From: an uncultured Erysipelotrichia bacterium
Lineage (GTDB): Bacteria > Bacillota_I > Bacilli_A > CAYWJS01
Direction of reading: 5' to 3'
Length of the DNA stretch: 64,000 nt
Assembly (NCBI GenBank): GCA_964458855.1
Contig: CAYWJS010000001.1
Location: 6,906-70,905, forward strand
The position numbers and the translations under genes are program-made. The notes below the pieces were generated by a model. It was not told the DNA's origin. It saw only the letters and a program-made list of their open reading frames with translations, and ran no database searches. Shown here piece after piece: positions 6,268 through 61,325 of the stretch (within the stretch, counting starts at the first letter, position 1; every line of letters starts with the position of its first letter).

Positions 6268-6310
6268 ACTACACCTCCTCGATTAAAAGCTTATCTTTCT
6301 ATCCAGTAAT

Positions 6311-20398: not shown

Positions 20399-20428
20399 AT
20401 AAAAACTTGGCTTATGCCAAGTTATTTA
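20399..20428. terminator. terminator between lipoprotein gene and thioredoxin-like gene
   Basis: aacttggc-ttat-gccaagtt hairpin with flanking A/T runs. Confidence 0.6.
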
Positions 20429-26867: not shown

Positions 26868-26897
26868 CAAAAAGTGGTGTTTTCACCACTTTTTTTA
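26868..26897. terminator. terminator after cdaR (agtggtg-tttt-caccact + T-run)
   Basis: Hairpin between cdaR and the SIS gene. Confidence 0.65.
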
Positions 26898-28181: not shown

Positions 28182-28995
28182 GACTATGACCTCTTTCTTC
28201 CTCAGAAGAACTTGTTTCTAATAATTTATGAAGTTCAACTTTAAACTCATCAATAGTTAAATCATATTGAACTTGCCCATCAACTGCAATTGAAAGTGCA
28301 CCTGTATCTCCTGAAGAAATAATTACAATACAATCAGTTGCCTCACTAATTGTAATTGCGGCTCTGTGCCTTCCCCCAAAATGTGGATTAAAAATTGGCA
28401 TTTGTTTTTGTGGGAAGAATGTGTTTGCACATGATATTTTATTCCCTTGAATTACAACTGCACCTTCATGAAGTGGACTATTTGGGGAAAATATTGTTTG
28501 TAAAAGTTCTGCTGAAATATCTGCATATATTTTTCTTGCTTTTTCAATATATTCTCCTAAACTGACGTTTCTTTCAATAGCAATAATTGCACCAATTTGA
28601 TGCTCTTTAAAATATTCTACTGTTTTTGTAAGTTCTAAAATTAAGTGTTCTTTTTCTCCCAGTGTCATCACTTTATGACGACCAAATAATTGGTTGCGCC
28701 CCAAATCTTCAAGAAATGCTCTAATTTCTGGTTGGAAAATAATAATGATAGCAAGGAACCCCCACATTAAAAAGTGATCTACAATCCAACCTAAAGTTGT
28801 AAGACCTAACCAGTTACTTAAAAGTTTAGTTAAAATAACAATAATTATCCCTTTAACTAATAGTAAAAAGCTTCCCTTTTTTCCCAGTTTTTTTAAGATA
28901 AAATATATTAAAAACCAAACTAGGCTTATATCCAATACATTTTTCAAAAATGCAATGATGCTTTCATAAGTTATTTGTTCTAACATCTTTTTCAC
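28165..28995 (-). CDS. cdaA: diadenylate cyclase CdaA (c-di-AMP synthase)
   Basis: 276 aa, three N-terminal TM helices, DAC domain motifs (HEGAVVI, GGRHRAAI). Confidence 0.9.
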   Translation of the reverse strand: MKKMLEQITYESIIAFLKNVLDISLVWFLIYFILKKLGKKGSFLLLVKGIIIVILTKLLSNWLGLTTLGWIVDHFLMWGFLAIIIIFQPEIRAFLEDLGRNQLFGRHKVMTLGEKEHLILELTKTVEYFKEHQIGAIIAIERNVSLGEYIEKARKIYADISAELLQTIFSPNSPLHEGAVVIQGNKISCANTFFPQKQMPIFNPHFGGRHRAAITISEATDCIVIISSGDTGALSIAVDGQVQYDLTIDEFKVELHKLLETSSSEEERGHSHEKNS

Positions 28996-31984: not shown

Positions 31985-32114
31985 ATCACTACCTACTTTA
32001 ATAATATATTACATTAACTCTTATTGCAAAATAAAAATTTTTAAATCTGTTCCTTTAATTTAAAAAATTCATATACTATAAATGAAATTTAAGGTAAATG
32101 GAAAGGAGTATATA

Positions 32115-32666
32115 ATGACATACATTGTAAAACCTAATGATACCCTTTGGAAAATTGCAAAAGATCATAATATTTCACTAAATGAACTACTTGCTTTAAA
32201 TCCACAAATTACTAATCCTTCGCTTATTTTCCCCGGACAAACTATTAATATTCCAAGTATTATAAGTGAACCTAGTGAAATAAAAGCATTAGAACAAGAA
32301 GTAATCCGTTTAGTTAATGAAGAACGAACTCGAATTGGAAGAAAAGCTCTTACTGAAAATGATAAATTAAGTAACGTTGCAAGAATTAAATCACATGACT
32401 TTATTAATAATAATTACTTTTCCCATAATTCTCCTACTTATGGAAGTCCTTCGGAAATGCTAAGAAGATTTAATATACCATTTACAGCTATTGCAGAAAA
32501 TATTGGGCAAGGACAGCAAAGTGCAAGAGAAGTTATGAATGATTGGATGAATTCAACAATGCATCGAAATAATATATTAAATTCAACTTATAATCAAATT
32601 GGGGTTGGGGTTGCAAGGGATGAAAATGGTAGGTTATATTGGACTCAAATATTTATTAGCAATTAA
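32115..32666 (+). CDS. LysM + CAP/SCP (YkwD-like) domain secreted protein
   Basis: LysM (YIVKPNDTLWKIAKDHNISLNELLALNP) followed by CAP domain (HNSPTYGS...GENIGQG). Start moved to ATG 32115 with RBS GGAAAGGAG. Confidence 0.75.
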   Translation: MTYIVKPNDTLWKIAKDHNISLNELLALNPQITNPSLIFPGQTINIPSIISEPSEIKALEQEVIRLVNEERTRIGRKALTENDKLSNVARIKSHDFINNNYFSHNSPTYGSPSEMLRRFNIPFTAIAENIGQGQQSAREVMNDWMNSTMHRNNILNSTYNQIGVGVARDENGRLYWTQIFISN

Positions 32667-32705: not shown

Positions 32706-33050
32706 TGGTGGAGGCGGTGGGATTCGAACCCACGTCCAAAAATAGAAAATACATAAACATCTACAAGTTTAGTTAGTTGAATAATTTAACTACTTAGTAA
32801 GCCAACTAACAAGCATCTAAGTAGCGAGTCTAGTAAAAATTTTGTTACTAGTTCCTAGACAAAACTAGTAACTATCCCACATTCATGAACCTTTTATATT
32901 CCAGGTGGGAGCCAGAATATAGAAGGCCTACCGCTTAGCTTAAGCAGTAGCTAATGCAAATTCGTTTCCGATTATTTTTCGGATGCGTTTTACGTACGCC
33001 TACGACTTGCAGTTTATGCTCTCGTATTCCCGTCGAAGCCAATCGCCCCC
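32706..33050 (-). ncRNA. ssrA: transfer-messenger RNA (tmRNA, ssrA)
   Basis: 5' GGGGGCGAUUGGCUUCGACGGG (G3:U70 acceptor) and 3' GUGGGUUCGAAUCCCACCGCCUCCACCA T-arm/CCA. Internal reading frame ...GGA AAC GAA UUU GCA UUA GCU ACU GCU UAA. Confidence 0.85.
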
Positions 33051-40078: not shown

Positions 40079-40528
40079 CTATTTATTTATTTTTTTATTT
40101 ATTTTTTCAAGATACCTTTTAGTATCTCTTTCTTTCAAAGTTTGACGTTTATCATAACTTTTTTTCCCGCGAGCAACACCAATTAATACTTTGGCACGTC
40201 CATGTTTAAAATATATTTTTAAAGGTATTAAAGTATAACCCTGATTTGAAAGAGCGCGTTCTAAACGTAAGATTTCGTTTTTATTAAGTAAGAGTTTTCT
40301 AGTTCTGAGTGGTTCATGATTAAAACGACCTCCTTCTTCATATGGTGCGATATAAACATTTAACAAAAACACTTCATGATTCTTAATATACGCATAAGCA
40401 TCTTTCAAATCAACTGAACCTTTTCTAATTGATTTTATTTCTGTTCCTTTCAAAACAATTCCCGCTTCATATGTATCTTCAATAAAATAATCGTGATATG
40501 CTTTTCGATTATTTATTTCTATTTCCAT
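40079..40528 (-). CDS. smpB: SsrA-binding protein SmpB
   Basis: 149 aa, [29 protein letters not shown]. Confidence 0.95.
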
Positions 40529-45557: not shown

Positions 45558-47048
45558 TTAATGTTTAATAAGTGAATCTTCTTCCATTTCAACAGGTTTT
45601 TCAAGATTCATTAGTTCTAAGATAGTAGGTGCAATATTACCAAGTTTTCCACCATCTTTTAATTTTATACCTTCTTTTACTATAATAAATGGTACTTTAT
45701 TTGTTGTATGAGTAGTAACAGGGTTTCCATCTTTATCAAGTAGCTCTTCACTATTTCCATGATCTGCTGTAACTATAAGAAGTCCATTAATTTGTTTTAT
45801 TTTTTGATATATTTTTCCTAAACACTCATCAACTGCTTCAATAGCTTTAATTGTTGCCTCCATATTTGCAGTATGTCCTACCATATCACCATTTGCAAAA
45901 TTTAAAACTACTAAATCATAGTTTTTATCTAATTCGGTAAGAAGTTTTTCTGTTATTTCATAAGCCGACATTTCTGGTTTTAAATCAAATGTTTCAACCT
46001 TTGGAGAATCAATTAAAATCCTTGTTGCACCAGGTAAATCTTTTTCTACTCCACCATCAAAGAAATATGTTACATGAGCATATTTTGTAGTTTCAGAAAT
46101 TCTAAGTTGAGTAAGTCCATGATCTGAAATATAATCTCCCAGAGTATTTTTTGGTGGTTTTATATCATACATTACACTTGCATTTATATCATCACGATAA
46201 AGGGTCATTGTTACAAAGTTTAAATTTAGGTTTTTTGTTTCAAAATATTTAAAGTTTGGATCAGTTAAAGCAAGTGAAAGTTCTATTGCTCTATCAGCTC
46301 TAAAGTTTGCAAAAATAACTGTATCATTTTCTTCAATAATTGCATCTGAATCTACAATAAATGGTGTAACAAATTCATCATAGTTTCCTTCTTCATAATT
46401 TTTTAAAATTCCTTCTTCAGCTGTCTTAAACTTAGGACCTTCTCCTTTTACTAATAAGTCATAAACTTTTTTTACATTATGCCAATTTTTATCGCGATCC
46501 ATTGCATAATGCCTTCCAGCCACAACTCCAATTGAACAAGCTTTTGTATTTAACAATTTTTTAATATAAGTATTTGCTGATTTATAATAAGTGTCCCTTC
46601 CATCTAAAAATGGGTGAACATATATATTTTTTATACCTTTTTCTTTGGCAAGTTTTACAATTTTAATAATATGATCAATATGAGAGTGAACTCCGCCATC
46701 ACTTAAAAGACCTAAGACATGTAATTTTTTATTTTCTTTTTTTGTTTTTAAAAGTGCTTCTTTTAAAATCTTGTTATTTTGAAAAATTCCTTGTTTAATT
46801 TCTTTGTGTATAACAACCAAGGTTTGATCTACTACTCTTCCAGCACCAATATTTAAGTGTCCTACTTCACTGTTTCCCATTTGACCTTCTGGAAGACCGA
46901 CTGCTAGACCAGACGCATCTAAAACAGTATGTGGAAAGTTTTCCCAAAAGTAATCAAAATTAGGCTTATTTGCTTGCTTAAAAGCATTACCAGGGATTTC
47001 TTTTCGAATTGCAACCCCATCTAAAATTGCAAGAAGTACTGTACTCAT
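45558..47048 (-). CDS. gpmI: 2,3-bisphosphoglycerate-independent phosphoglycerate mutase
   Basis: 496 aa, iPGM family (MGNSEVGHLNIGAGR). Confidence 0.95.
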   Translation of the reverse strand: MSTVLLAILDGVAIRKEIPGNAFKQANKPNFDYFWENFPHTVLDASGLAVGLPEGQMGNSEVGHLNIGAGRVVDQTLVVIHKEIKQGIFQNNKILKEALLKTKKENKKLHVLGLLSDGGVHSHIDHIIKIVKLAKEKGIKNIYVHPFLDGRDTYYKSANTYIKKLLNTKACSIGVVAGRHYAMDRDKNWHNVKKVYDLLVKGEGPKFKTAEEGILKNYEEGNYDEFVTPFIVDSDAIIEENDTVIFANFRADRAIELSLALTDPNFKYFETKNLNLNFVTMTLYRDDINASVMYDIKPPKNTLGDYISDHGLTQLRISETTKYAHVTYFFDGGVEKDLPGATRILIDSPKVETFDLKPEMSAYEITEKLLTELDKNYDLVVLNFANGDMVGHTANMEATIKAIEAVDECLGKIYQKIKQINGLLIVTADHGNSEELLDKDGNPVTTHTTNKVPFIIVKEGIKLKDGGKLGNIAPTILELMNLEKPVEMEEDSLIKH

Positions 47049-47094: not shown

Positions 47095-47135
47095 AAAAAT
47101 TAAATGATTAGAATTTCTTTCTAATCATTTTTTAG
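47095..47135 (-). terminator. terminator after membrane-protein gene (aatgattag-...-ctaatcatt + T-run)
   Basis: Hairpin overlapping the stop of the 47125..47808 gene. Confidence 0.55.
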
Positions 47136-47808
47136 CTTTCTTTTTTCTTTTAATTAAGATTTTATTTAACCAATATTTATCATATTTTAAAGAAATATAA
47201 CCAATTAAAGACATTACAAATGCACCAATTGCATCTACTTGCAAATCTCGCATGGTATCCATTAGTGCTTCGCGTCCAACTAAAATTACTCCATCGTAGG
47301 TTCTAAACTTTTGCATATTCAAACCTAAAAGTCCATCAAAAGTAAATTCAAAAAACTCCCAGAATACTCCTAGAGTAACAGCGAAACAAAATGAGAAAAA
47401 AGCCACAAAAATAGGTGATAAATTAATAAGGGAATTTTTCTGATTTAATAAATTAACAAGGGAAAAACCTAATGCCCCAAGCATGGCACCACTTGTTACA
47501 TGAAGTAATTTATCCCAAAAAGGAACAAAGTAATAAAAATCACGGAATTCTCCTAAAACTATTGAACAAAAAAGAAAAATAATAAAGAAAAAATACATAA
47601 CAGAAGGAATTTCAAGTTCAAATTTACGTGAAATAAATCCTGGGGCAAGCATTCCTAAAATACCTGTCAATGCTTGAATTAATATTAAAATATAGTCACC
47701 TTGATAATCCTTAGTAAAAAGGCGAACTACAATAAAAATTACCGAAATAATTAAAATAATAAATAATATCCAAGGCATCGTTTTTTTTGCCTTTTTTTCT
47801 TTTTCCAT
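47125..47808 (-). CDS. hypothetical polytopic membrane protein
   Basis: 227 aa, Lys-rich termini, 5-6 TM. Confidence 0.5.
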   Translation of the reverse strand: MEKEKKAKKTMPWILFIILIISVIFIVVRLFTKDYQGDYILILIQALTGILGMLAPGFISRKFELEIPSVMYFFFIIFLFCSIVLGEFRDFYYFVPFWDKLLHVTSGAMLGALGFSLVNLLNQKNSLINLSPIFVAFFSFCFAVTLGVFWEFFEFTFDGLLGLNMQKFRTYDGVILVGREALMDTMRDLQVDAIGAFVMSLIGYISLKYDKYWLNKILIKRKKKAKK

Positions 47809-47869
47809 CTGAACACCTCACCAAAATATGCTTTTAGTAAAAAAATTTTAGCATACATTATAATTTTTA

Positions 47870-47900
47870 GTCAAATAAAAAGGGAACTTACGTTCCCTTT
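47870..47900 (-). terminator. terminator after spo0A (aagggaac-ttac-gttccctt + U-run)
   Basis: Hairpin immediately 3' of the spo0A stop on the minus strand. Confidence 0.65.
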
Positions 47901-47905
47901 AAAAT

Positions 47906-48682
47906 TTATCCTCGTGTTGTTTTTACACCAAAATCTAGTTTTAATTTATCAGCAATTGCTGCAACAAATTCTGAATTTGTTGGTTTTGCTCTTTCAATGT
48001 CAACGCTATTTCCAAAAATTTCTTCCATTACTGCCCAATCTCCACGATTCCAAGAAACTTCTATTGCATGCCTTATTGCTCGTTCTACTCTACTTACGGT
48101 AGTCTTATATTTTTTTGCTATTTCAGGATAAAGTACTTTTGTTACCGCTCCAATATATTCATCACTTGAAAACATCCGAACAATTCCTTCGCGAATATAT
48201 TGATATCCTTTAATATGGGATGGGAGTCCTAAAGCATGAAGAATTTTTGTAACTTCTATTTCTAAATCGTTTTGTACTCCGCGTACTAAGGTGCCTTTTT
48301 GAGTCTCATTGTTAAAACATTCAATTATTCTTTTTTCTAAATCGATTAGTTCAAAAGGTTTAAGAATAAAATAACTTGCCCCCATTTCAGAAAGTCTTCT
48401 AATTGTGTCTTGTTGGTTAAATGAAGTAGCAATAATTACTTTTTTGTCAATATTTCTTCTTTTCATTTCTTCTAAAACATAAATCCCATCTTTTACGGGC
48501 ATTATTAAATCAAGAATAACAAGATCATAATCATCCTGTCTTTCATCAATGATTTTTATTCCTTCTTCACCATTATAAGCTTCTAATACAAGTTCAATTT
48601 GTGAATGCCCCATAAAATATTCGCAAACTAACTTAATTAAATTAACATTATCATCCACCATCAGAACTCTAATTTTTGACAT
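47906..48682 (-). CDS. spo0A: stage 0 sporulation response regulator Spo0A
   Basis: 258 aa. Receiver domain (MVDDN...DLVILDLIMP), Spo0A-specific effector domain (GLPSHIKGYQYIREGI, TTVSRVERAIRHAIEVSWNRG, KPTNSEFVAAIADKL). Confidence 0.9.
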   Translation of the reverse strand: MSKIRVLMVDDNVNLIKLVCEYFMGHSQIELVLEAYNGEEGIKIIDERQDDYDLVILDLIMPVKDGIYVLEEMKRRNIDKKVIIATSFNQQDTIRRLSEMGASYFILKPFELIDLEKRIIECFNNETQKGTLVRGVQNDLEIEVTKILHALGLPSHIKGYQYIREGIVRMFSSDEYIGAVTKVLYPEIAKKYKTTVSRVERAIRHAIEVSWNRGDWAVMEEIFGNSVDIERAKPTNSEFVAAIADKLKLDFGVKTTRG

Positions 48683-48782
48683 TTTTCATTCTCCTTATTT
48701 TTATTTTTTCTTACATTCTTATACCAACTACTCTAATATATAAGATTTTTTTTGAATGAAATGTCGAGAAATGTCGGTGGTA

Positions 48783-49496
48783 TTAATAATTTGTGATTTT
48801 TAAAAAACTTTCTAAATCCAGCGATGCTCCTCCAACTAATACCCCATCAATGTTTGGTTCGCTAAGTAATCCTTTTATGTTATCTGGAGTAACACTTCCA
48901 CCGTATAAAATTTTTAGATCTGAAACATTTATATTTTCTCTTATATACTTACACATTTCTTCCGCATCTTCTAAGGTTGCAGTATTTCCAGTACCTATTG
49001 CCCAAATTGGTTCGTAAGCAATTATTATTTTATTAAGATTTTCTTTGTCAATGTTTTTTAAACACTCTTTTAATTGCTTTTTTACTTTTTCAAAATGTGT
49101 GTTATTTTTTCTTTCTTCTAATGATTCCCCTATACAAAGAATTGGTGTTAAATTGTGTTTTAGGGCTGCTATTACTTTTTTGTTAATTAACTTATCATCT
49201 TCATAAAAATACTTTCTTCTTTCACTGTGACCCAAGATTACATATTCTGCTCCAACTAATTTTAACATTAAAGGAGATATTTCCCCTGTAAACGCCCCAT
49301 ATTCTTCAAAATACATATTTTGAGCACCTATTTTTATTTTATCTTCGCTTAGAGTTACTAAATCTCTAATATATAAAGATGGGGCGCAAATTATAACTTG
49401 ATTTTTATTTGATATATTCCCTTTTAAATTTTTAACAAAAGAGATAGCTTCCTCATAACTTTTATTCATTTTCCAGTTTCCAATTATGATTTTCAT
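48783..49496 (-). CDS. tpiA: triosephosphate isomerase
   Basis: 237 aa, TIM barrel motifs (IIGNWKMN, AYEPIWAIGTG); ATGA start/stop overlap with upstream GT4 gene. Confidence 0.95.
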   Translation of the reverse strand: MKIIIGNWKMNKSYEEAISFVKNLKGNISNKNQVIICAPSLYIRDLVTLSEDKIKIGAQNMYFEEYGAFTGEISPLMLKLVGAEYVILGHSERRKYFYEDDKLINKKVIAALKHNLTPILCIGESLEERKNNTHFEKVKKQLKECLKNIDKENLNKIIIAYEPIWAIGTGNTATLEDAEEMCKYIRENINVSDLKILYGGSVTPDNIKGLLSEPNIDGVLVGGASLDLESFLKITNY

Positions 49497-50698
49497 TTTT
49501 TATTCCTCTTTCTTCTAAAAAATAAAAATCTTCTTTTTTCAGGTTTATTACTGATTGCAAGTTCATAAACTTTTACTACTTTACGTGCAAAATTTTCTGC
49601 CGAAAACTCTTTAGCATCTTCTTCTGCAGTTTTTGCCATTTTTTCAAGTTTTTCAGTGTTTTCTGAAAGTTCAATAATCTGTTTTGCTAAGGTTTTTTTA
49701 TCAGTAAAGAAATAACCATTTTTTCCGTGTCTTAAAACTATTTTGAAACTATCATCTTCATAACATAAAACTGGAACCCTTGCAGCCATTGCTTCAATTA
49801 CTGTTAAACCTTGTGTTTCTGTTTTGGAAGCTGTTACAAATACATCAGTAATTTGATAAACATAGTGAATGTCTTTGCGAGGTCCTGTAAAAATTATATT
49901 ATTTTCTAATTTCAATTTTTTAACTAAATTTTTAAGCTTTTCTTCATCTGGACCCTTACCAGTAATCACTAATTTAATTTTACTGTTTTCTTTTACTATT
50001 GTTTTCATTGTTTCAATTACAAATTCAATATTTTTTTCTTTTCCAAGACGTCCTACAAATAAAACTATAAAGTCATCTAAAGAAAGACCAAATTCTTTTT
50101 TTAACTTATTAACTTCTTCTTGAGTAAAGTTTTTTCTATTAAATCTTTCTACATCTATTCCTGTTGGAATAACATGAATTCTCTTTTTAACTCCGTACTT
50201 TTCAAGTAGAATTTTTGTTTTGTTAGTTGGAACAATTAATTCAGTACTTCTGTTGCTATAAAACTTTGTTAATTGTTTTGCAACAGTTCTTGCAAATTTA
50301 TCAAAGTGTCCTTTTGTTACATAATGCATATAATCTTCCCACACAGTATGATAAGTGTGAACAAGAGGAATATTATTTTGTTTTGCATATATCCTTGCAA
50401 ATGTTCCAATACCAAATTCTGTATGTGAGTGAATTACATCAAGATTCCAGTCTTTGATCTTACTAAAAACTCGAACAGGATAAATACTTGTTAAGATGTT
50501 ATTATCAAATGATTTGAATTTTAAACCTGGTACCCTTACTATCTTTTCATCATAATCGTAGCGAAACATGCTGTCATTTACTGTTAAAACAAATACTTCG
50601 TGACCTTGTTTTTCAAGTTCGTGTTGCAACATTTTAATGCTTGTTACAACACCATTAATTTGTGGTTCATATGTATCTGTAAAAATTCCTATTCTCAC
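49493..50698 (-). CDS. GT4 glycosyltransferase, BgsB/alMGS-like (candidate 1,2-diacylglycerol 3-glucosyltransferase)
   Basis: 401 aa, N-terminal MRIGIFTDTYEPQINGVVTSI motif typical of monoglucosyl-DAG synthases; GT4 EX7E-type C-terminal half. Confidence 0.65.
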   Translation of the reverse strand: MRIGIFTDTYEPQINGVVTSIKMLQHELEKQGHEVFVLTVNDSMFRYDYDEKIVRVPGLKFKSFDNNILTSIYPVRVFSKIKDWNLDVIHSHTEFGIGTFARIYAKQNNIPLVHTYHTVWEDYMHYVTKGHFDKFARTVAKQLTKFYSNRSTELIVPTNKTKILLEKYGVKKRIHVIPTGIDVERFNRKNFTQEEVNKLKKEFGLSLDDFIVLFVGRLGKEKNIEFVIETMKTIVKENSKIKLVITGKGPDEEKLKNLVKKLKLENNIIFTGPRKDIHYVYQITDVFVTASKTETQGLTVIEAMAARVPVLCYEDDSFKIVLRHGKNGYFFTDKKTLAKQIIELSENTEKLEKMAKTAEEDAKEFSAENFARKVVKVYELAISNKPEKRRFLFFRRKRNKK

Positions 50699-50702
50699 TA
50701 TA

Positions 50703-51704
50703 TCACCTCTTTTTATTAGTTAAAACAAGAGTTAGTCCTCCTAAAAATAGTCCAAAATAATATGTAATAAAACGCCAAAGTAACATTATTGCAGCAAGTT
50801 GATAGCCTTTAACTAAAACGCCAAAGAAAGCAATAAAACTATATTCAGCACCACCACTTCCTCCTGGAAGAGGAATAAATGCTGAGATAAGTGCTACATA
50901 AGCACTTGCAACAATCACTTTAATTGGGCTTACATTCATAATACCAACACTATAAAATAGAAAAACTGGTATTAAATAAAATAAAGTTAATTTTAAAATA
51001 TTTAAAATAAAGCTTTTAATTGCTAATTCTTTATTATGCCTTAATTCAAATGCATTCTCATAAAACTCTTGATTTCGCTTTCTCCATCTTTTTATATGTT
51101 TTTCTTTATTTTTGATAAAATTTAATTTAGCAAAAATATTAATAATTCCATTAATTAAAAAACTATTAAAGCGTGGGAAAAAAGTAATAGTAAGCAAACT
51201 AGCAATAACTAAAAAATTAATTAAAAAACCAATAATTGTTAGTTTATCCAGCAATGCAATTTCATTAAATAAACCTGTGATCCAATTGTAAATTAAAGCA
51301 AATGCTCCAAGTAAAACTAATACTAATTGATAAACAATAAAGTTTTGGACTGAAGCATTACTTGCACTAACAGCTGGAATGCCTTCGGTGGTTAATAGAT
51401 AAATTTGTGCTGGTTGACCACCAGTTGCAAAAGGTGTAATACCATGGAAAAATTGAGTAATAATTGTGTTTTTTAAAATTTTTTTATATTTTAAATCTTT
51501 TTTAAAAGGGAAAACCATTAGTTGTAAGGTTTTTGCCTCAATCATCCAATATAATAACAGAGAAAATAAGGCAAGTAATATAAAAAATATATTAGCCTTT
51601 CTAATCTGCATAACTATATCAAAAAATTCATCTTTTAAAGAAAAGTAGAGAACTAAAGAGGTTATAACAATTAAAATAATAAAATTACTTTTTCTAAGTT
51701 TCAT
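50703..51704 (-). CDS. UPF0104/flippase-like (MprF-N-terminal-type) integral membrane protein
   Basis: 333 aa, ~8 TM; family frequently paired with glycolipid glycosyltransferases. Confidence 0.55.
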   Translation of the reverse strand: MKLRKSNFIILIVITSLVLYFSLKDEFFDIVMQIRKANIFFILLALFSLLLYWMIEAKTLQLMVFPFKKDLKYKKILKNTIITQFFHGITPFATGGQPAQIYLLTTEGIPAVSASNASVQNFIVYQLVLVLLGAFALIYNWITGLFNEIALLDKLTIIGFLINFLVIASLLTITFFPRFNSFLINGIINIFAKLNFIKNKEKHIKRWRKRNQEFYENAFELRHNKELAIKSFILNILKLTLFYLIPVFLFYSVGIMNVSPIKVIVASAYVALISAFIPLPGGSGGAEYSFIAFFGVLVKGYQLAAIMLLWRFITYYFGLFLGGLTLVLTNKKR

Positions 51705-51728
51705 GCTGATTCCTGCCTTTATTATTAA

Positions 51729-52736
51729 TTAGTACTTTTTATTAAGCACTTTTTCATAAACATCTAATAATTTCTCACCAATTTTTTCGATTTTTCTTTC
51801 TTCTGCGATTTTTCTTCCTTCTTTTGTTAAATCAGGAAGTTCTTTATTTACTAATTTTCTTAGAGTATTTGAAAATTCTTCATTAGTTTTACATTTATAA
51901 CAATTTTTTCCGTGCTCTAACCACTCATAGTAAACTGGAATATCACGGATAACAATTGGTGTTTCAGTAGCAAGCGCTTCTAAAACAACAATTCCTTCAG
52001 TTTCTTCATGAGTCATAAATAAGAATGCATCAGCAGTACTTAATGAACCTGCAATTGTAGTTGATGGAACGTATCCTGGAAAATATACATTCTTTGGTGG
52101 ATTTTTGACAATATCTCTAATCTTTTTAGGAATTGAATAAAGCGGAGTATATCCAAACCAAATAAATTTATAATCTGGATTCATTTTGGCAACTTCAACA
52201 AAGTCTAAAATTCCTTTGCGTTCAATATATAATCCAATGCTCATAATAATTACATCATCATCACTAAATCCATATTCTTTACGAAACTCTTTTCCTTTTT
52301 CTTCATCTTTTTTAAATAGTTCTAATTGAATTCCGTTTGAAATTGCAATAATTGGAGTTTTTACTCCATAATTTTCAATTAAACTTTTTGAATATGGAGT
52401 TGGAGTAATTACATAATCTGCACTACCGTATAATCTTGTAAGACGTTTTTTTAAAAGTGGTGCAATTTGATTGGATAAAATAAATGAATTTCTAAAATCC
52501 TCATATGTAGTATGAGCATGATAAACAACTGGAATACCTTGTTTTTTACATCTTTTTAGTAATCTACTTGATTTAATACCATAAGTATTGATATGAGCAA
52601 TATCAAAACTGTCTTTTGGGTCTAAAGTATATTCTATTCCTTGTGATTCTAGTGCTTTCATTTGATGTTTTAAAGCTCTTCCTACACCTGACTTTTTAAT
52701 ATACTTCATTCCTTCAAAATAAAGTAAAACTTTCAT
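51729..52736 (-). CDS. GT4 glycosyltransferase, BgsA-like (candidate diglucosyl-DAG synthase)
   Basis: 335 aa, GT4 fold, N-terminal KKSGVGRALKHQ motif. Confidence 0.6.
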   Translation of the reverse strand: MKVLLYFEGMKYIKKSGVGRALKHQMKALESQGIEYTLDPKDSFDIAHINTYGIKSSRLLKRCKKQGIPVVYHAHTTYEDFRNSFILSNQIAPLLKKRLTRLYGSADYVITPTPYSKSLIENYGVKTPIIAISNGIQLELFKKDEEKGKEFRKEYGFSDDDVIIMSIGLYIERKGILDFVEVAKMNPDYKFIWFGYTPLYSIPKKIRDIVKNPPKNVYFPGYVPSTTIAGSLSTADAFLFMTHEETEGIVVLEALATETPIVIRDIPVYYEWLEHGKNCYKCKTNEEFSNTLRKLVNKELPDLTKEGRKIAEERKIEKIGEKLLDVYEKVLNKKY

Positions 52737-53344: not shown

Positions 53345-53698
53345 CTACATCACATAGGTATAGTTATTTTCTCCATTATTTGTTAGTTTTACAACTTCAG
53401 TTTTAGGATCTAGTATCTCATTTGTAATTGGGTTCTTAATTGGTTCAACTATCAAATTTGCTTGAATCAATTCATCAAGAGTGATTATATACGAATCTCC
53501 CTCATATGGTAGTTTATCACTGTTTATTATTGCATATTTTTGGGCAGCATTAACTATTAACTCCTTCTGTCTTTCTCAAACATTTATTTTGTTTTTTTCA
53601 ATAATGTAAAAAACAGAAGGAATTGCAATTGCAAGGATTATTCCCAGTACTACTATTACTGCTAAAAGTTCAATTAAAGTAAAAGCTTTTTTGCCCAA
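53345..53698 (-). pseudogene. prepilin-type (ComGC/pseudopilin-like) gene interrupted by an in-frame TGA
   Basis: TTG start after RBS GGAGGG. Encodes (M)GKKAFTLIELLAVIVVLGIILAIAIPSVFYIIEKNKINV-TGA-ERQKELIVNAAQKYAIINSD...TYVM in one frame (40 codons, TGA, 76 codons). Confidence 0.55.
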
Positions 53699-53744
53699 CT
53701 TGAACCCTCCCCTTATTAACATATTGTTTATCTTATAAATACGA

Positions 53745-53770
53745 AAACATAACCTAAAAGGTTATGCTTA
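53745..53770 (-). terminator. terminator after pgk (cataacc-taaaa-ggttatg)
   Basis: Hairpin directly 3' of the pgk stop. Confidence 0.55.
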
Positions 53771-54949
53771 TTTTTTTATTATTTCTACCCCAGGTAAAGG
53801 TTTGCCTTCTAAAATCATTAGTGAGGCACCTCCACCAGTAGAAATATGATCAAATTTTTCTTTGTATCCTGCTTGAATAGCTGCTGCAGCAGAATCTCCA
53901 CCGCCAATTACTGTAATTGCGTCTTCAAGATTTGCAAGTATTTCACAAATTGCATTTGTTCCTTTTGCAAAATTAGGAAATTCAAAAACTCCTACTGGTC
54001 CATTCCATACAACTGTTTTTGCATCTTTTAATATTTCTTTGAAAAGTTCAATTGTTTTTGGACCAATATCTAAAGCTTCTTCATCATCAAGAATTTCACT
54101 AATCCATGTATAACGATAATCTGCATCAGGAGAAAACTCTTTTGCAACTGCAACATCTACAGGGAGAACAATTTTATCATGACCTTTTTCTAACATTTCT
54201 TTTGCAAATTCTAATTTATCTTCTTCAAGAAGTGATTTACCAATATTATAACCTTTTGCTTTTAAGAATGTATAAGCAATTCCTCCACCAACTAAAATTT
54301 TGTCAGCCACTTTAACTAGGCTTTCAATAACACCTATTTTATCCCCAACTTTTGCGCCTCCTAATATTGCAACATATGGACGCTTTGGATTACTAATATT
54401 TTTATTATAGAAATTTATTTCTTTTTCAATTAGATAACCACTTACTGTTTCAAGGTGTTCACCTATTCCTACGTTTGAAGCATGACTACGGTGAGCTGTT
54501 CCAAAAGCATCATTAACAAAAATATCACCTAAACCTGCCCAATAACGTGCAAGTTCTGGATCGTTTCCAGATTCCTTTTTACCATCTAAGTCTTCAAAAC
54601 GTGTGTTTTCTACAAGTAATACATCTCCAGGTTGCATTTTATTTATTGCTTCTTCTAACTCCTTTCCTCTTGTGTGAGAAACAAAAATAACTTCTTTTCC
54701 TAAAAGTTCACTTAAACGGGGCACAACTATTCTTAAAGAATATTTTGCTCTATCTTCTTCACTTTTAGGTCTTCCTAAATGGGAAAAAATTATTGCTTTT
54801 CCACCATCTTCAATAACATGCTTAATAGTGGGAATTGATTCAACAATTCTTGTATCATCAGTTACTACTTCTCCTTGAAACGGTACATTTAAATCACAAC
54901 GAATAAGTACTTTTTTACCATTAAAGGATACATCTCTTACAGTTTTCAT
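53768..54949 (-). CDS. pgk: phosphoglycerate kinase
   Basis: 393 aa, canonical PGK. Confidence 0.95.
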
Positions 54950-54959
54950 AAAAACCCTC

Positions 54960-55967
54960 CTATCTATTAATTAAATATTTTGCTGTTCTGATAAGTTGTG
55001 CTGTATAACCCATTTCATTATCATACCAAGCAATTATTTTAACTAATTGTTTTCCATCAACGGCCATAACTTGTGTTGCATTAGCATCAAATAATGCTCC
55101 ATAAGTTGTACCAATTACATCACTTGAAACGATAGGATCCTCAGTATAACCTAATGTTTCATTTGCTTTTTCTTTAAATACTTTATTAATTTCTTCTTCT
55201 GTAACATTTTTCTTAAGTTGTACTGTTAAATCAACTACTGAACCAGTTATTACAGGAACACGAAGTGCAATACCATCAAGTCGACCTTTTAGTTCAGGCA
55301 TAACTTCACCAATTGCTGATGCTGCACCTGTAGATGTTGGAATAATATTTGCTGATGAAGTTCTTCCACGACGCGAATAAATTCCTTTTTTATGAGGTTT
55401 ATCTAATACAACTTGATCATTTGTAACAGCGTGTACTGTTGTCATAAATCCCTTTTCAATTCCAAACTCTTCATGTAATACTTTAACGATAGGTGCTAAA
55501 CAGTTAGTTGTACAACTTGCACCAGAAATAATTTCTTCATTACCATCTAAAATATTATGGTTAACATTATAAACGATAGTTTTTGCATTACCTTTAACTG
55601 ATGCTGAAACAATTACCTTTTTAGCACCTGCCTTAATATGTTTTCTCGCCCCTTCTTCTTTTGTAAAAACTCCTGTGCATTCTAATACTACATCTACCTC
55701 TAATTCTTTCCATGGTAAATTTTCTGGGTCTGCTTCTTTAAAAACTTTTATTTTCTTTCCATCAACTTCTAAATAATCTTCCCCAAATGAAATTGAGTCA
55801 GTTTGAAAAGTTCCTTGCACTGTGTCATATTTTAATAAATATGCAAGTGTTTCGGGATCAGTTAGATCATTAATTGCAACAACTTCAATATCTGGGTCAT
55901 CTTCAATTAAGCGGAATGCTAATTTTCCAATTCTTCCAAACCCATTAATTGCTAATTTTACAGCCAT
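54960..55967 (-). CDS. gap: glyceraldehyde-3-phosphate dehydrogenase
   Basis: 335 aa, NGFGRIGK Rossmann, active-site SCTTNC. Confidence 0.95.
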
Positions 55968-55993
55968 GTTATTCCTCCTATTCTTATTTATTA

Positions 55994-56009
55994 TACAATT
56001 TTAATTGTA
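55994..56009. promoter_or_regulatory. perfect 16-bp palindrome TACAATTTTAATTGTA in the divergent gap/clpP control region (candidate operator; overlaps a TATAAT -10 for gap)
   Basis: 7-bp inverted repeat with a 2-nt spacer, 27 nt upstream of the gap start codon. Confidence 0.35.
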
Positions 56010-56087
56010 TCAAATTAATCCTTTTTTGTCACATACTTAATTGCATAATTTTACCACTTGAAGTTTATGATATTTATAGGTGATAAG

Positions 56088-56666
56088 ATGAATTTAATTC
56101 CAACAGTTATTGAAAAGACAAATCAAGGTGAACGAGCTTATGATATTTATTCAAGACTTTTAAAAGAACGTATCATTATGTTAAATGGGCTTATTACTGA
56201 TGAGCTTGCAAATAGTATTGTTGCCCAACTTTTATTTTTGGATTCAGAAAACAATGATGATATTTATTTATATATTAATTCACCAGGTGGTTCAATTACA
56301 GCGGGAATGGCAATTCATGATACTATGCAGTATATAAGAAGTGATGTTTCTACAATTTGTATTGGTATTGCTGCTAGTATGGCTGCTTTTATTCTTTTAA
56401 GTGGAGCTAAAGGAAAAAGATTTATCTTGCCTAATTCTGAAGTGCTTATACATCAACCATTAGGAGGGGCAGAAGGGCAAGCAACAGAAATAAAAATTGC
56501 CGCTGAAAGAATATTGAAATTGAAAGCAAAAATTAATGAATTAATGTCACAATATACAGGGCAACCTGTAGAAAAAATTGAACAAGATACAGAAAGGGAT
56601 TATTTCTTAAATGCTAAAGAAGCATTAAAATATGGTATTGTTGATAAAATTATTACTAAAAAATAA
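56088..56666 (+). CDS. clpP: ATP-dependent Clp protease proteolytic subunit
   Basis: Ser-His-Asp triad context ([15 protein letters not shown]). Start trimmed to MNLIPTVIE with RBS AGGTGA. Confidence 0.9.
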
Positions 56667-56692
56667 AAGGGAAATACTCCCTTTTATTTAAA
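56663..56692. terminator. bidirectional terminator (aaggga-aatac-tccctt)
   Basis: Serves clpP (+) and whiA (-). Confidence 0.6.
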
Positions 56693-57619
56693 TCTTTTTG
56701 CTATTTTAGCAATTTTATTAAATCTGTGACTAAGTCCTGATTTAGTAATTGGTGTTTTTGTTTCCTTGGAAATTATTTCACTTAATTCTTTTAAAGAAGC
56801 ATCTTCATAACGAAGTCTTAAAACTGCTGCTTCTTTTAATTTATCATCAAGTGAATTTAATCCAATATGTTCTTCAATTAAGTGAATATTTTTTATCTGG
56901 TTTTGAGCTGCTTCCATACTTTTTTCAATATTTGCTTGTTCACAGTTGTTAAGTCTATTAGTCATATTTTTATGATCACGGTAAATTCTAATATCTTCAA
57001 AGTATAAAAGCGCATTACTTGCATTTATAACTCGCAAGAAATCACTTATTTTTTCTGCTTCTTTAATATAAACAACGTATCCTTTTTTTCTTCTTATAAC
57101 TTTTGCATTTAAGTCATACGAATTCATTAATTCTTTAATAAATTCAGCCAAACTCTCATCATCTACAGTAATTTCTTGATGATATCTGGATGTTTTTGGA
57201 TCATTAATTGAACCACTTGCTAAAAATGCACCTCGTAAATATGCACTTTTATTTTCACCATCATCAACAATATATTCCTTTGGAACGGAATTTAAGATTA
57301 GGTGTCCATCAGAAATTGATAAATCACTTAAAATTTTTTCAACATCTTTATCAATACGAACAATATAAATATTTTTCTTATTTAAATTAACTTTTTTCTT
57401 TGTTAAAAGAGTTGGGGTAATATTATATTTATTTTTAACTAAAATAAAGACGTGTCTCGCAATTGCAGCATTTTCTGTTTTTATATCAATAAGAGACACA
57501 CCTTTACTAAATACTAATGAGCCATTAATTCTAATAATTGCTGAAAGTTGTGCTAGCATAGCTGTTTCTGAAATATCTAATTTAACTATTTCGTTTTTTA
57601 CTTCTTGTGCAAACGACAT
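56684..57619 (-). CDS. whiA: DNA-binding protein WhiA
   Basis: 311 aa, LAGLIDAG-like domains and C-terminal HTH; downstream of yvcK as in Firmicutes. Confidence 0.85.
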   Translation of the reverse strand: MSFAQEVKNEIVKLDISETAMLAQLSAIIRINGSLVFSKGVSLIDIKTENAAIARHVFILVKNKYNITPTLLTKKKVNLNKKNIYIVRIDKDVEKILSDLSISDGHLILNSVPKEYIVDDGENKSAYLRGAFLASGSINDPKTSRYHQEITVDDESLAEFIKELMNSYDLNAKVIRRKKGYVVYIKEAEKISDFLRVINASNALLYFEDIRIYRDHKNMTNRLNNCEQANIEKSMEAAQNQIKNIHLIEEHIGLNSLDDKLKEAAVLRLRYEDASLKELSEIISKETKTPITKSGLSHRFNKIAKIAKRFK

Positions 57620-57643
57620 ATTACCACCATCTCTTTTTTTATT

Positions 57644-58639
57644 TTATCCTATAATGTGTGTATAAATTGTAGCAGCAAGTTTTAAAGGATTGTGGCGAAT
57701 ATAACCATCTTCTTCAATTTCAATAAAATCACCTTTTATAATTTCAATAGGCATTCCTTCTAATTCTTTAGTTATTACTACTACATTAGATCCTTCTTTT
57801 TGGTATTTTTTAAGAATTTTGGGAGGAATTGGACCAATATTTACTACTACAGAATCAAGAAAAGGTGCTCCCATATGTTTATATAATGCATCAATAAAAT
57901 CTTTTACGGTATAACCATCTGTTTCCCCTGGTTCCGTCATGACATTGCAAACATACATTTTATGGGCCCGTGAAGAAAGAAGAGCTTTTTTCATATCTGT
58001 TGCAATAAAAGTTGGAATTATGCTTGTATATAAACTTCCTATTCCTAAAATTATTACATCTGCTTCCATAATTGCATCAATTGCCCTTCCAACCGTTTTC
58101 GGTTCTTTTTTATATGAAATATAATCTATTTTTTTTCTTGCTTTTGCAATATTAGATTCACCTTCAACAATTGTTCCATCAGTCATATGAGCAACCAATG
58201 TTACTTGTTCTTCAGTGCTTGGAAGAATTGTTCCTTTAACGTTAAAAACTTTTCCTAAAGAATCAACCGCATCAACTAAATTTCCTGTAATATCAAGCAT
58301 AGCTGTAAGAAGAAGGTTCCCTGTTGGATGACCATTTAAATCAGAATTTGTTTTAAAACGATATTGTAACAGTTGTTGAACCAATGGTTCAACATTTGAT
58401 AAAGATACTAAAACATTACGAAGATCACCAATTGCTGGAATTGAAAATTCACGTCTTAATTTTCCTGTTGACCCTCCGTCATCAGCAACTGTTACAATTG
58501 CTGTGATATCAAGGGGAAAATGTTTTAATCCACTAAGTAGTCTTGAAAGACCTGTTCCGCCACCTAAAACTACTACTTTAGGTAGATTTTTCATTTTAAC
58601 ACTCCTCACTTCAAACTTACTTTTCAAGTATCTCTTCAT
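57644..58639 (-). CDS. yvcK: gluconeogenesis factor / UPF0052 (YvcK, CofD-like)
   Basis: 331 aa, VVVLGGGTGLSRLLSGLK N-terminus. Confidence 0.8.
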   Translation of the reverse strand: MKRYLKSKFEVRSVKMKNLPKVVVLGGGTGLSRLLSGLKHFPLDITAIVTVADDGGSTGKLRREFSIPAIGDLRNVLVSLSNVEPLVQQLLQYRFKTNSDLNGHPTGNLLLTAMLDITGNLVDAVDSLGKVFNVKGTILPSTEEQVTLVAHMTDGTIVEGESNIAKARKKIDYISYKKEPKTVGRAIDAIMEADVIILGIGSLYTSIIPTFIATDMKKALLSSRAHKMYVCNVMTEPGETDGYTVKDFIDALYKHMGAPFLDSVVVNIGPIPPKILKKYQKEGSNVVVITKELEGMPIEIIKGDFIEIEEDGYIRHNPLKLAATIYTHIIG

Positions 58640-59069
58640 ATCTTGAAATAATTCTTGATGGGTGGTAGACCTGAATTCCCATTCTTTCTACCTTTTTTAA
58701 AATATCATGATGGTCATCAATTAAAACAACATCTTCATAATTTAAATTTAATTTTTCAAGTATTTTTTCTAATTCACTTGCTTTATCAGCAACTGGATAT
58801 TTTATATAATAACGGTTCTCTTTTTTTACTGGAAAATATTTATCAAGCCACTCATCTTTTTCTTGAATTGCACGTTCATTTGGTGCTGCTGATATTATAT
58901 AATATTCATCATTTTCATAAAGTTTTTTTATTGCATCAAGTACTATCTTAACTGGTCTTTTACTTATATACATATTAAATACCTTACTATAATCTTCAAT
59001 AATTATTTTATCATTAGGTCCTTTGTATTCTGCTATTGTTCCATCCATATCAATAAAAATATGTTTCAT
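58617..59069 (-). CDS. small HAD-superfamily phosphatase (5'(3')-deoxyribonucleotidase-like)
   Basis: 150 aa, motif I FIDMDGT, overlaps yvcK start by 23 nt; occupies the position usually held by rapZ (yvcJ). Confidence 0.5.
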   Translation of the reverse strand: MKHIFIDMDGTIAEYKGPNDKIIIEDYSKVFNMYISKRPVKIVLDAIKKLYENDEYYIISAAPNERAIQEKDEWLDKYFPVKKENRYYIKYPVADKASELEKILEKLNLNYEDVVLIDDHHDILKKVERMGIQVYHPSRIISRYEEILEK

Positions 59070-59141
59070 TTTTCCACCTCATCATCTATTATTATATATA
59101 TTTTATTATACAACAAATTAGCCCTAGAAAAAATAATACCA

Positions 59142-60062
59142 TTATAATGTTTCTATATATTTTTGGGCATTAATAGCTGCAATAGCACCATCATTAATAG
59201 CTGTTACAATTTGCCTTAAATCTTTTTCAATCACATCCCCTACTGCATAAATTCCAGGAATATTTGTTTCCATCTTGTGATTTACCTTAATATATCCTTG
59301 TTCATTCAAAATACCTAGATTTAAGCAAAACTCAGTTGCTGGAATTGCCCCAATAAAAATAAAGCATCCTGATACTTTTAATGTGCTTATTTGTTCAGTT
59401 TTTGTATTTTTTAATTTTAATTCAGTAAGTTTATTTTCATCCCCTAAAAACTCTAACACTACAGTATCGTAAAGAACTGTTATTTTTTCATTTTTTAAAA
59501 CTTTTTCTTGTATACTTTCTTCCCCACGAAATTCATCACGACGATGAATTAAATAAACATGATTTACTATATTAGAAAGATATAAAGCCTCTTCTAAGGC
59601 ACTATTTCCGCCTCCAATAACAGCAACATCTTTACCTGCATAAAGTTTACCATCACAAATTGCACACCAACTAATACCACGTCCAGTATATTCTGCCTCT
59701 CCTTTTACTTCTAATTTTTTTGGTGTTGTTCCTGTTGCAATTATTACAGCTTTTGCTTTTATCTCTTCGGTTTCTGTTTTTATTATTTTATAAGGGGGTT
59801 CATTAACTATTTCTTTTACATCACCAAAAATATAATTAACACCGGCTTTTTCTAATTGCTCATACATTTTAAATGCAAGCGTTGTTCCTTCAACCAAAGA
59901 AAAACCAGGATAATTTTCAATGCATGCAGTCATATTCATTTTCCCACCAGGAATATTTTTTTCAATAATTAAAGTTTTTAAATTAGCACGTACTGCATAA
60001 AGTCCAGCAGTCATTCCCGCAGGTCCTGAACCAATAATTGCAATATCATACACATTTTCCAT
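59142..60062 (-). CDS. trxB: thioredoxin-disulfide reductase
   Basis: FAD motif IIGSGPAG, redox CAIC, NADPH GGGNSA. Start trimmed to MENVYDIAIIG with RBS GGAGG. Confidence 0.9.
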   Translation of the reverse strand: MENVYDIAIIGSGPAGMTAGLYAVRANLKTLIIEKNIPGGKMNMTACIENYPGFSLVEGTTLAFKMYEQLEKAGVNYIFGDVKEIVNEPPYKIIKTETEEIKAKAVIIATGTTPKKLEVKGEAEYTGRGISWCAICDGKLYAGKDVAVIGGGNSALEEALYLSNIVNHVYLIHRRDEFRGEESIQEKVLKNEKITVLYDTVVLEFLGDENKLTELKLKNTKTEQISTLKVSGCFIFIGAIPATEFCLNLGILNEQGYIKVNHKMETNIPGIYAVGDVIEKDLRQIVTAINDGAIAAINAQKYIETL

Positions 60063-60063
60063 T

Positions 60064-60861
60064 TTATTTTCCTCCAACATTATAAAATTCATCATAAATT
60101 TTCTTTTTCCTTTTAAAATACCAAATTATTACTGAAAAAACTATTATAAGAAGAGATACAAGTTGTGCAACTTTTATATCAAAGAGCATCAAACTATCTG
60201 TTCTAAACCCTTCGATAAAAAATCTTCCTACTGAATACCAAATTAAGTAAAGAAGAATAGTTTCTCCTAATTTTGTTTTATTTCTTTTGCGAAAATTAAT
60301 TAAGACAAAAAAACCTATTAAATTAAAAAGTGACTCATATAAAAATGTTGGGTGATGATAATTTCCACCAATAAACATTCCCTCAATAATAAAATCAGGA
60401 ATAAGTAAAGATTCTAAAAATGTACGCGATACAACTATACCATATGCTTCTTGATTAAAAAAGTTCCCCCATCTTCCTATTGCTTGCGCAAGAATAATAC
60501 TTGGGGCAGCAATATCTAAGATTCGGGGAATGTTAACATTATGTTTTTTACAATAATAAATACCAAAAATAAAGGCAAAAAGAAGAGCGCCATGAATGGC
60601 AAGACCACCTTCCCAAATATAAAAAATGCTTAATAAGTTATCTTTATAAAGATCAAAATTAAAAATTACATAATAAAGTCTAGCACCAATTAAAGCAAAG
60701 GGGAAAGTAAAGAATGCTAAATCATAAATAAAATCTTCACTAATATTATATTTTTTGGCTTCCCGAATTGCAGTAATTATTCCAGCTAGAAGTCCTAAAA
60801 ATATAAAAAGTGAATACCAATATATTTTAAGAGGACCTAGTTCAAGAGCAATTCTACTCAT
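60064..60861 (-). CDS. lgt: prolipoprotein diacylglyceryl transferase
   Basis: 265 aa, Lgt signature GRWGNFFNQEAYG, 7 TM. Confidence 0.9.
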   Translation of the reverse strand: MSRIALELGPLKIYWYSLFIFLGLLAGIITAIREAKKYNISEDFIYDLAFFTFPFALIGARLYYVIFNFDLYKDNLLSIFYIWEGGLAIHGALLFAFIFGIYYCKKHNVNIPRILDIAAPSIILAQAIGRWGNFFNQEAYGIVVSRTFLESLLIPDFIIEGMFIGGNYHHPTFLYESLFNLIGFFVLINFRKRNKTKLGETILLYLIWYSVGRFFIEGFRTDSLMLFDIKVAQLVSLLIIVFSVIIWYFKRKKKIYDEFYNVGGK

Positions 60862-61325
60862 GATTTTACCTTAATTACTTCTTTTATATTATAAGTTGGT
60901 GAAATAATTACAGCAATTAGAATATAAATCCAAATGTTTAAAATATTAAATGAACTTGCAAAAAGAACATCTAAACCTAATAATATTAAAATTCCAAAAA
61001 CTATTTGCATCCCCTTCATTGCAATATGTGCTAAACCTATAATTAAGTAAAATAAAATGTCTTTTTCTTCTTTCTTTGTATCTTCAATAATTTTTGCAAA
61101 GTGATTTAACAATGGAGAGATTAAAAAGTTTATAAGTTTCATAACAAAATAAATCACTAAACCTGTAAGTATTAATATTGAATATTTTTCAAAATATAAG
61201 TCTTCAGTAATCAAACTTATAATAAATAAAATTAAAATGGTTGCAATACTTGATACAATATGGCTTATTACTGAAAAAGAATTAAATTTTTTCATATTCT
61301 CTCCTCCAATTATTTTATAATACAT
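60858..61325 (-). CDS. hypothetical small membrane protein
   Basis: 155 aa, 4 predicted TM; overlaps lgt start and uvrA stop. Confidence 0.45.
   Translation of the reverse strand: MYYKIIGGENMKKFNSFSVISHIVSSIATILILFIISLITEDLYFEKYSILILTGLVIYFVMKLINFLISPLLNHFAKIIEDTKKEEKDILFYLIIGLAHIAMKGMQIVFGILILLGLDVLFASSFNILNIWIYILIAVIISPTYNIKEVIKVKS

Follow-up and report, generated by a model that had tools for sequence, protein, structure and literature searches.

In Bacillus and Clostridium, spo0A lies in the spoIVB–spo0A(–recN) neighborhood, and in Bacillus subtilis the gene is served by the promoters Pv and Ps. In the clostridia, exemplified by Clostridioides difficile and Clostridium acetobutylicum, Spo0A is a master regulator that operates without the Bacillus phosphorelay and is thought to be phosphorylated directly by orphan kinases, and a 0A box in the promoter region of the gene itself is known for clostridial spo0A. 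A further setting is the uncultured order RF39, which, according to PMC10868615, encodes spo0A, spoIIGA, spoIIM, spoIIP, spoIIQ, and other sporulation genes and is predicted there to form spores with unusual regulation. Here we describe a spo0A gene in a 64,000-nucleotide stretch of contig CAYWJS010000001.1, the whole of which is referred to as the window. The gene is likely to encode a functional Spo0A orthologue that forms its own transcription unit, occupies an inherited, clade-specific position next to the triosephosphate isomerase gene tpiA, and most probably controls a reduced sporulation programme.

The identity of the window open reading frame (ORF) as a full-length, intact Spo0A orthologue is confirmed. 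The ORF scores 276.8 bits against the equivalog model TIGR02875, “sporulation transcription factor Spo0A” (cut-off 200), with CheY as the runner-up NCBIfam family at 61 bits, and it covers the DNA-binding profile PF08769 end to end (1–104 of 104). The structures of the B. subtilis and Geobacillus stearothermophilus Spo0A DNA-binding domains, 1LQ1 and 1FC3, align with residues 138–251 (E ~1e-40), the recognition helix TTVSRVERAIRHAIEV differing from the Bacillus sequence by one A-to-V change, and the Spo0A receiver structures 9PHZ, 1QMP, and 5WQ0 match the N-terminal half. The original prediction, made from the DNA letters of the window, had claimed a true Spo0A with its effector domain and a receiver domain with the phospho-acceptor aspartate, and both claims hold. 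Across 82 aligned sequences of the clade, the acidic pocket D10–D11, the phospho-acceptor D58 (in ILDLIMP), and K108 (in LKPF) are at least 95% conserved, and the same holds for SHIKGYQYIRE, KPTNSEF, and the complete recognition helix, a degree of conservation not expected of a gene in decay. The window corresponds to positions 7588..71587, in reverse, of NODE_223 (112.7 kb) in ENA assembly ERZ2648110. At the strain level, the window and five other sequencing runs carrying the same locus show zero nucleotide differences in spo0A across the six samples, so that dN/dS is uninformative at this level.

The relatives used for comparison are 80 related loci, taken at the species level, with the window proteins compared by tblastn. 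The nearest Spo0A proteins in the species-representative genome collection are 60–66% identical and all come from gut metagenome-assembled genomes (MAGs). The records of the relatives are labeled Bacilli bacterium, uncultured Tenericutes, Mollicutes bacterium, Clostridium sp. CAG:710, and CAG:1193, and the closed genomes among them measure 1.20 and 1.49 Mb. The gut MAG origin and small genomes of the relatives, together with the low GC of the window, are in keeping with the uncultured order RF39 (Nayfach 2019, PMC6784871). In addition, an accession next to UMGS1109 listed as RF39/UBA660 in the PMC10868615 supplement may belong to UMGS1110, a relative. The host is an uncultured, AT-rich, small-genome gut member of the class Bacilli, probably of GTDB order RF39, and the earlier claim that the organism descends from endospore-forming Bacillota is upheld.

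The 140 nt upstream of spo0A were aligned and read across the loci, giving 79 upstream regions. The 0A box TGTCGAA, read in reverse complement as TTCGACA, is observed in exact form in 61 of 78 relatives, in a single orientation throughout and 86–106 nt before the ATG, at a density of 5.6 per kb versus 0.04 per kb in the other 854 kb of the loci (138-fold). In several relatives the box is doubled as TTCGACAnnnTTCGACA, often in a 7+3+7 tandem form, and within the loci of the relatives the core TGTCGn5TGTCG is found solely upstream of spo0A. This head-to-tail 7+3+7 geometry matches the abrB operator, which in 1LQ1 carries two Spo0A DNA-binding domains. The box of the relatives is followed by a −35-like hexamer (TTGACA, TTTACA, or CTAGAA) and, ~43 nt on, by an extended −10 element, TGnTATAAT, which sits 35–40 nt before the ATG and is succeeded by GCGTGnAGTA, a ribosome-binding site (RBS), and the start codon. 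In the window, the corresponding pair of boxes starts 5 nt past the tpiA stop codon, its 7+3+7 spacing places the two boxes one helical turn apart, and its core, CGACAn5CGACA, is unique in the 64 kb, with 0 expected by chance.

A check for 0A boxes or a sigma-H promoter upstream of spo0A had been proposed with the original prediction. The 0A box is present in exact form in the relatives and in the window itself only as a degenerate tandem, and a sigma-H promoter (AGGAWWT...GAAT) was recognized in none of the 79 aligned regions. A sigma-H-driven spo0A promoter was rejected, the conserved element being TGnTATAAT, which is sigma-A-like. From the arrangement of these elements, spo0A is probably a self-contained unit that regulates itself.

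Further elements are visible in the upstream regions of the relatives. The motif GCGTGnAGTA lies ~10–30 nt before the spo0A ATG, between TATAAT and the RBS, and is probably located at or just after the transcription start. One subgroup carries a CTAG-containing palindrome, ACTAGA-n10-TCTAGT, just past the 0A box; this palindrome is not in the window. In eight loci (L037, L048, L054, L058, L067, L069, L073, and L078), a predicted hairpin with a T-run upstream of spo0A, for example GACAATTTCGACAAAAGTTGTC then TTTTTTTT, takes in the 0A box, so that the Spo0A site and the hairpin overlap on the DNA.

Taken as a unit, the locus would comprise tandem 0A boxes just upstream of a putative extended −10 promoter of the sigma-A type, a short leader with a good RBS, and the coding sequence, closed off by a strong terminator. 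Spo0A, presumably phosphorylated by kinases, would bind the box pair in the manner known from the B. subtilis abrB operator, as a dimer arranged head to tail, and the bound protein would feed back on its own synthesis. The spot downstream of tpiA would go back to an ancestral rearrangement that almost all of the clade has inherited, and it would concern gene order, not operon fusion. Spo0A would most probably still govern a reduced sporulation programme, and the host may form spores.

Several observations weigh against this reading. The window boxes are degenerate, with one mismatch in CTCGACA and two in ACCGACA, the window −10 element is TATAAG, and the GCGTGnAGTA leader motif of the relatives is absent. 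Across the window the exact TGTCGAA is not enriched (4 found versus 3.8 expected), and a Spo0A regulon within the window was rejected on that ground. In the spacer between tpiA and spo0A, the energy-based scan described below finds no terminator in the window, and this spacer folds no better than its shuffles (z 0.11). The RF39 assignment, which rests on the labels and traits of the relatives, GTDB taxonomy, and the accession adjacency, not on a phylogeny, is probable, not proven. Beyond spo0A, no core sporulation gene is found in the 64-kb window or in the ~10 kb past it, and the three sporulation-associated matches in this DNA, to CwlD-, YkwD-, and YdcC/GerS-like proteins, all fall under curated cut-offs. 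In RF39, spoIIE, spoIIAB, spoVB, and spoVD are reduced or absent according to PMC10868615, and the machine-learning classifier SpoMAG gives RF39 MAGs a 0% sporulation probability (PMC12536801).

The last of these points would also fit a Spo0A that has been repurposed, in a clade that is no longer endospore-forming, as an autoregulated stationary-phase or host-adaptation regulator of nonsporulation genes. We regard such repurposing as unlikely. The genes spoIIE and spoIIAB, which are needed for sigma-F activation, are among those reduced or absent in RF39, the clade genomes are merely 1.2–1.5 Mb, and experimental spore evidence for the clade, from culture or resistant fractions, was not found in the literature. 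A survey for other sporulation genes, also proposed earlier, covered ~74 kb of the 112.7-kb contig and yielded the CwlD-like and YkwD-like genes and the weak YdcC/GerS-like match and zero core sporulation genes. The CwlD-like amidase scores 200 bits over the full TIGR02883 model (cut-off 221.6), with other amidase models at no more than 66 bits, and it lies directly after rplM–rpsI, a neighborhood in which B. subtilis cwlD is also found. Relatives of this amidase are numerous in metagenome assemblies, 43–54% identical among the matches listed, and one is named CwlD by NCBI. The presence of CwlD-like and YkwD-like genes on the same contig, from families tied to the spore cortex or to spore-formers, speaks against repurposing, as do the spoIIGA, spoIIM, spoIIP, spoIIQ, and other genes of RF39 and the strong conservation of Spo0A residues, including the regions that touch sigma factors in Bacillus. 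The published sporulation predictions for RF39 conflict, PMC10868615 standing against PMC12536801, and the window does not decide between them.

The placement of spo0A was compared in the 76 loci whose sequence upstream of the gene reaches 1.2 kb or more. In the window, tpiA is separated from spo0A by 100 nt, and the GT4 glycosyltransferase gene ahead of tpiA has a stop that overlaps the tpiA start. In 62 of the 76 relatives, tpiA is likewise immediately 5′ of spo0A, with a spacer mostly of 92–130 nt, and the usual order in those relatives is gap–pgk–(LPG_synthase_TM–GT4)–tpiA–spo0A. Among the exceptions, small ORFs are inserted between tpiA and spo0A in two relatives, tpiA is gone from the site in four, leaving pgk–LPGs–GT4–spo0A, cdaA–ybbR replaces tpiA 5′ of spo0A in four others (L053, L060, L066, and L072), and unrelated neighbors (ackA, a DHH phosphoesterase, and a glycine-rich protein) are observed in two. 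The 3′ side of spo0A is variable. An AAA_14/DUF4143 ATPase gene occupies it in 34 loci, a His_Phos_1 (GpmA-type) mutase gene in a few relatives, and pilin-like genes in some, and the spo0A–gpmI adjacency is retained in 2 of 76, one of them with eno upstream. A peptidase U32/PTAC pair is also among the annotated spo0A neighbors in relatives. Neither spoIVB nor recN is among the annotated spo0A neighbors in the window or the relatives, the flanks having had no targeted search for either. Adjacency to spoIVB is in any case a custom of the locus and does not define the Spo0A protein family.

The position beside tpiA, in a gap–pgk–tpiA–gpmI–eno cluster, is therefore an old clade-wide trait and not peculiar to the window genome, since the synteny is common to ~80% of the relatives. 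The original prediction had described spo0A as lying between tpiA and gpmI and had called this placement unusual, adding that conserved placement in all relatives would reduce its novelty. The tpiA side of that description is accurate, and a DUF2238 gene intervenes before gpmI; a homologue of this gene is found in none of the 80 loci of the relatives, and its occurrence at the spo0A–gpmI position is confined to the window species. The placement does differ from the spoIVB–spo0A arrangement, but it is common to the 62 relatives, with most of the others having spo0A in or beside the pgk...gpmI cluster, and its novelty is lower accordingly.

Terminators were sought with an energy-based scan, which calls a hairpin followed by a T-run at a folding free energy (dG) of −7 kcal/mol or below and includes control windows; a stricter scan, for a perfect stem with at least 3 G–C pairs, gave few terminators in the AT-rich relatives and was replaced by it. 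Downstream of spo0A in the window, a stem at 47900..47879 with 4 G–C pairs, followed by TTTTTATTT, folds with a dG of −13.5 kcal/mol (z −3.76), a stability that 0 of 200 shuffles match, in agreement with the clean intrinsic terminator claimed earlier. Among the relatives, a hairpin with a T-run is found after tpiA in 42 of 59 and after spo0A in 28 of 59, against 6 of 295 control windows. These counts indicate that spo0A in the clade is normally insulated, monocistronic, and apparently self-regulated. The earlier description of spo0A as monocistronic is thus well supported in the relatives and only partly so in the window, where the spacer after tpiA is without a terminator, read-through from tpiA is possible, and the species has lost the upstream insulator.

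The tpiA–spo0A junction could itself be functional, in that read-through from the highly expressed glycolytic genes would give basal Spo0A, replacing the vegetative promoter Pv of B. subtilis and tying Spo0A dosage to carbon flux. We consider this coupling quite improbable as the explanation of the locus. The nearly constant length of the junction in most relatives (~92–130 nt), next to a highly variable 3′ side of spo0A, would be consistent with it, as would the structure-free spacer of the window, but terminators after tpiA in 42 of 59 relatives make insulation, not read-through, the rule. Furthermore, a 0A box and conserved promoter elements belong to spo0A itself, the eight relatives noted above either lack tpiA at the site or have cdaA–ybbR in its place, and gene order kept in slowly rearranging, reduced genomes needs no selection. 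Read-through is compatible with an autonomous, self-regulated spo0A, the two being nonexclusive, and is possible in the window. A more elaborate version, in which Spo0A dosage comes partly from glycolytic read-through and, given the absence of spoIIE and spoIIAB reported in PMC10868615, carbon flux gates a rewired, minimal differentiation or sporulation programme, is more doubtful still. If it were true, the coupling to carbon flux would be strongest in the window species, in which the tpiA terminator is lost and the 0A boxes are weakened.

That spo0A is a remnant in decay, or that horizontal transfer recently brought it into the glycolytic cluster, is extremely improbable: the regulatory region is more degenerate in the window species than in the relatives and the neighboring DUF2238 gene is species-specific at the site, but the ORF is intact and above the equivalog cut-off, every key residue is conserved, six independent samples show identical DNA, the GC content equals that of the surroundings (27–33% along the window, ~29% for the host, with no compositional anomaly in spo0A), and synteny is kept in ~80% of relatives. 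Horizontal transfer of spo0A was rejected on composition and synteny. The strong constraint on spo0A, its conserved, apparently self-regulated promoter, and the accompanying cortex-associated genes together argue against a decaying relic.

Table 1. Features of the spo0A locus and sporulation-associated genes (window coordinates, except for the CwlD-like amidase).
Feature	Coordinates	Strand	Basis or remark
spo0A coding sequence, 258 aa	47906..48682	-	ORF table and profile matches
Receiver domain, aa 6-119	48667..48326	-	PF00072 Response_reg, E 7e-21
Spo0A_C DNA-binding domain, aa 144-247	48253..47942	-	PF08769, E 6.5e-39
RBS AAGGAG, 8 nt before ATG	48691..48696	-	Sequence read
Putative extended -10 TGgTATAAG of the spo0A promoter	48718..48726	-	Matches TGnTATAAT of relatives; missed by generic consensus scan
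Tandem degenerate 0A boxes ACCGACA-ttt-CTCGACA (reverse complement TGTCGAG-aaa-TGTCGGT; ACCGACAtttCTCGACA)	48762..48778	-	Sequence read; homologous position in relatives
Intrinsic terminator of spo0A	47870..47900	-	9-bp stem AAAGGGAAC/GTTCCCTTT, 4-nt loop, T-run
tpiA (triosephosphate isomerase), upstream neighbor	48783..49496	-	Pfam TIM, E 6.5e-93
Promoter-like TTGACT-18-TAAAAT with upstream TG, for the DUF2238 gene	47845..47874	-	10/12 consensus matches
DUF2238 membrane-protein gene, 227 aa, between spo0A and gpmI	47125..47808	-	PF09997
gpmI (2,3-bisphosphoglycerate-independent phosphoglycerate mutase)	45558..47048	-	Pfam Metalloenzyme and iPGM_N
LysM + CAP protein, YkwD family, SafA-type LysM	32082..32666	+	162 bits, cut-off 171
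YdcC/GerS-like lipoprotein beside acpS	20422..21438	-	Weak match, 38.8 bits, cut-off 175
CwlD-like amidase, directly downstream of rplM-rpsI	L088 15717..16373, same contig, ~5 kb beyond window position 1		TIGR02883

The surroundings of spo0A show further features. In the window, the interval between pgk and tpiA (49493..52736, minus strand) contains a gene for a membrane protein of the LPG_synthase_TM family, accompanied by one or two GT4 genes. The LPGs–GT4 pair is kept between pgk and tpiA in ~56 relatives (L007–L086), and the glycolytic cluster of the clade thus also carries probable glycolipid-synthesis genes. The cdaA–ybbR pair, encoding a c-di-AMP synthase and its regulator, is downstream of spo0A in L027; in the window it is at 26895..28995, ~20 kb away from spo0A. 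In L039 (CALVRE010000031.1; 5116..5886 and 6001..6771), a second, divergent Spo0A-like gene lies between tpiA and the canonical spo0A, and its product is 51% identical, has DN for DD at the acidic pocket, and has an altered recognition helix (TASRVERSMRHAIEIS). Contig L089 (ERZ2648049 NODE_559), assembled at 1.6x coverage from a different sample, matches window positions 64000..53619 with 99.8% identity and diverges ~150 nt past the pgk stop, where it continues with pilin-like genes, rimP, nusA, and an Rce1-like gene; the divergence reflects either a rearrangement between strains at the pgk terminator or a chimeric assembly.

The rest of the window holds housekeeping genes, namely the S10–spc–alpha ribosomal operons, adk, secY, rpoA, tRNA genes, Mur ligase genes, ddl, acpS, cdaA–ybbR, pyrG, a P-type ATPase gene, the tmRNA gene, smpB, frr, rnr, secG, eno, clpP, whiA, trxB, lgt, and uvrA; no histidine kinase, Spo0F, or Spo0B is seen among the window genes. 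The tmRNA gene (32706..33050, minus strand), with the tag peptide GNEFALATA, is ~7 kb from smpB (40079..40528), the two being separated by Mur ligase genes, the P-type ATPase gene, and a patatin-like gene.

Spore formation by RF39-like gut bacteria, which are common, uncultured, and have genomes of 1.2–1.5 Mb, bears on host-to-host transmission and on culturing. Spo0A, its autoregulation through 0A boxes, and intrinsic terminators are textbook knowledge, and spo0A with a reduced sporulation set in RF39 was published in 2024 (PMC10868615). The clade-wide tpiA–spo0A linkage and the TTCGACA box with its 7+3+7 tandem form were not found described in the literature located, and linkage and box provide simple clade markers.

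Similar to B. subtilis Spo0A, the window protein has a two-domain architecture, a phospho-acceptor pocket, and the same recognition helix apart from the single A-to-V change. As in B. subtilis, 0A boxes lie upstream of spo0A itself, in exact form in most relatives and in degenerate form in the window, which would imply autoregulation. The main differences from B. subtilis are the location of spo0A after tpiA instead of by spoIVB or recN, a sigma-A-like extended −10 element with no sigma-H-type promoter recognized, a shorter linker in the window Spo0A (258 versus 267 aa in total), and no Spo0F or Spo0B seen in the region examined. In the Clostridia, by contrast, spo0A is usually linked to spoIVB and is found in large genomes with full sporulation sets, whereas the clade relatives have genomes of 1.2–1.5 Mb. 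The closest likeness is to the Spo0A proteins of RF39, ML615J-28, RFN20, and Erysipelotrichales, reduced-genome Bacilli that keep spo0A together with a minimal sporulation set (PMC10868615); that work covers the presence and absence of KEGG orthologues, and its accessible text does not mention the tpiA–spo0A linkage or the 0A-box promoter. The window Spo0A is most probably one more member of this group, and the locus is an incremental, descriptive addition to a well-known system and not a system of a new kind.

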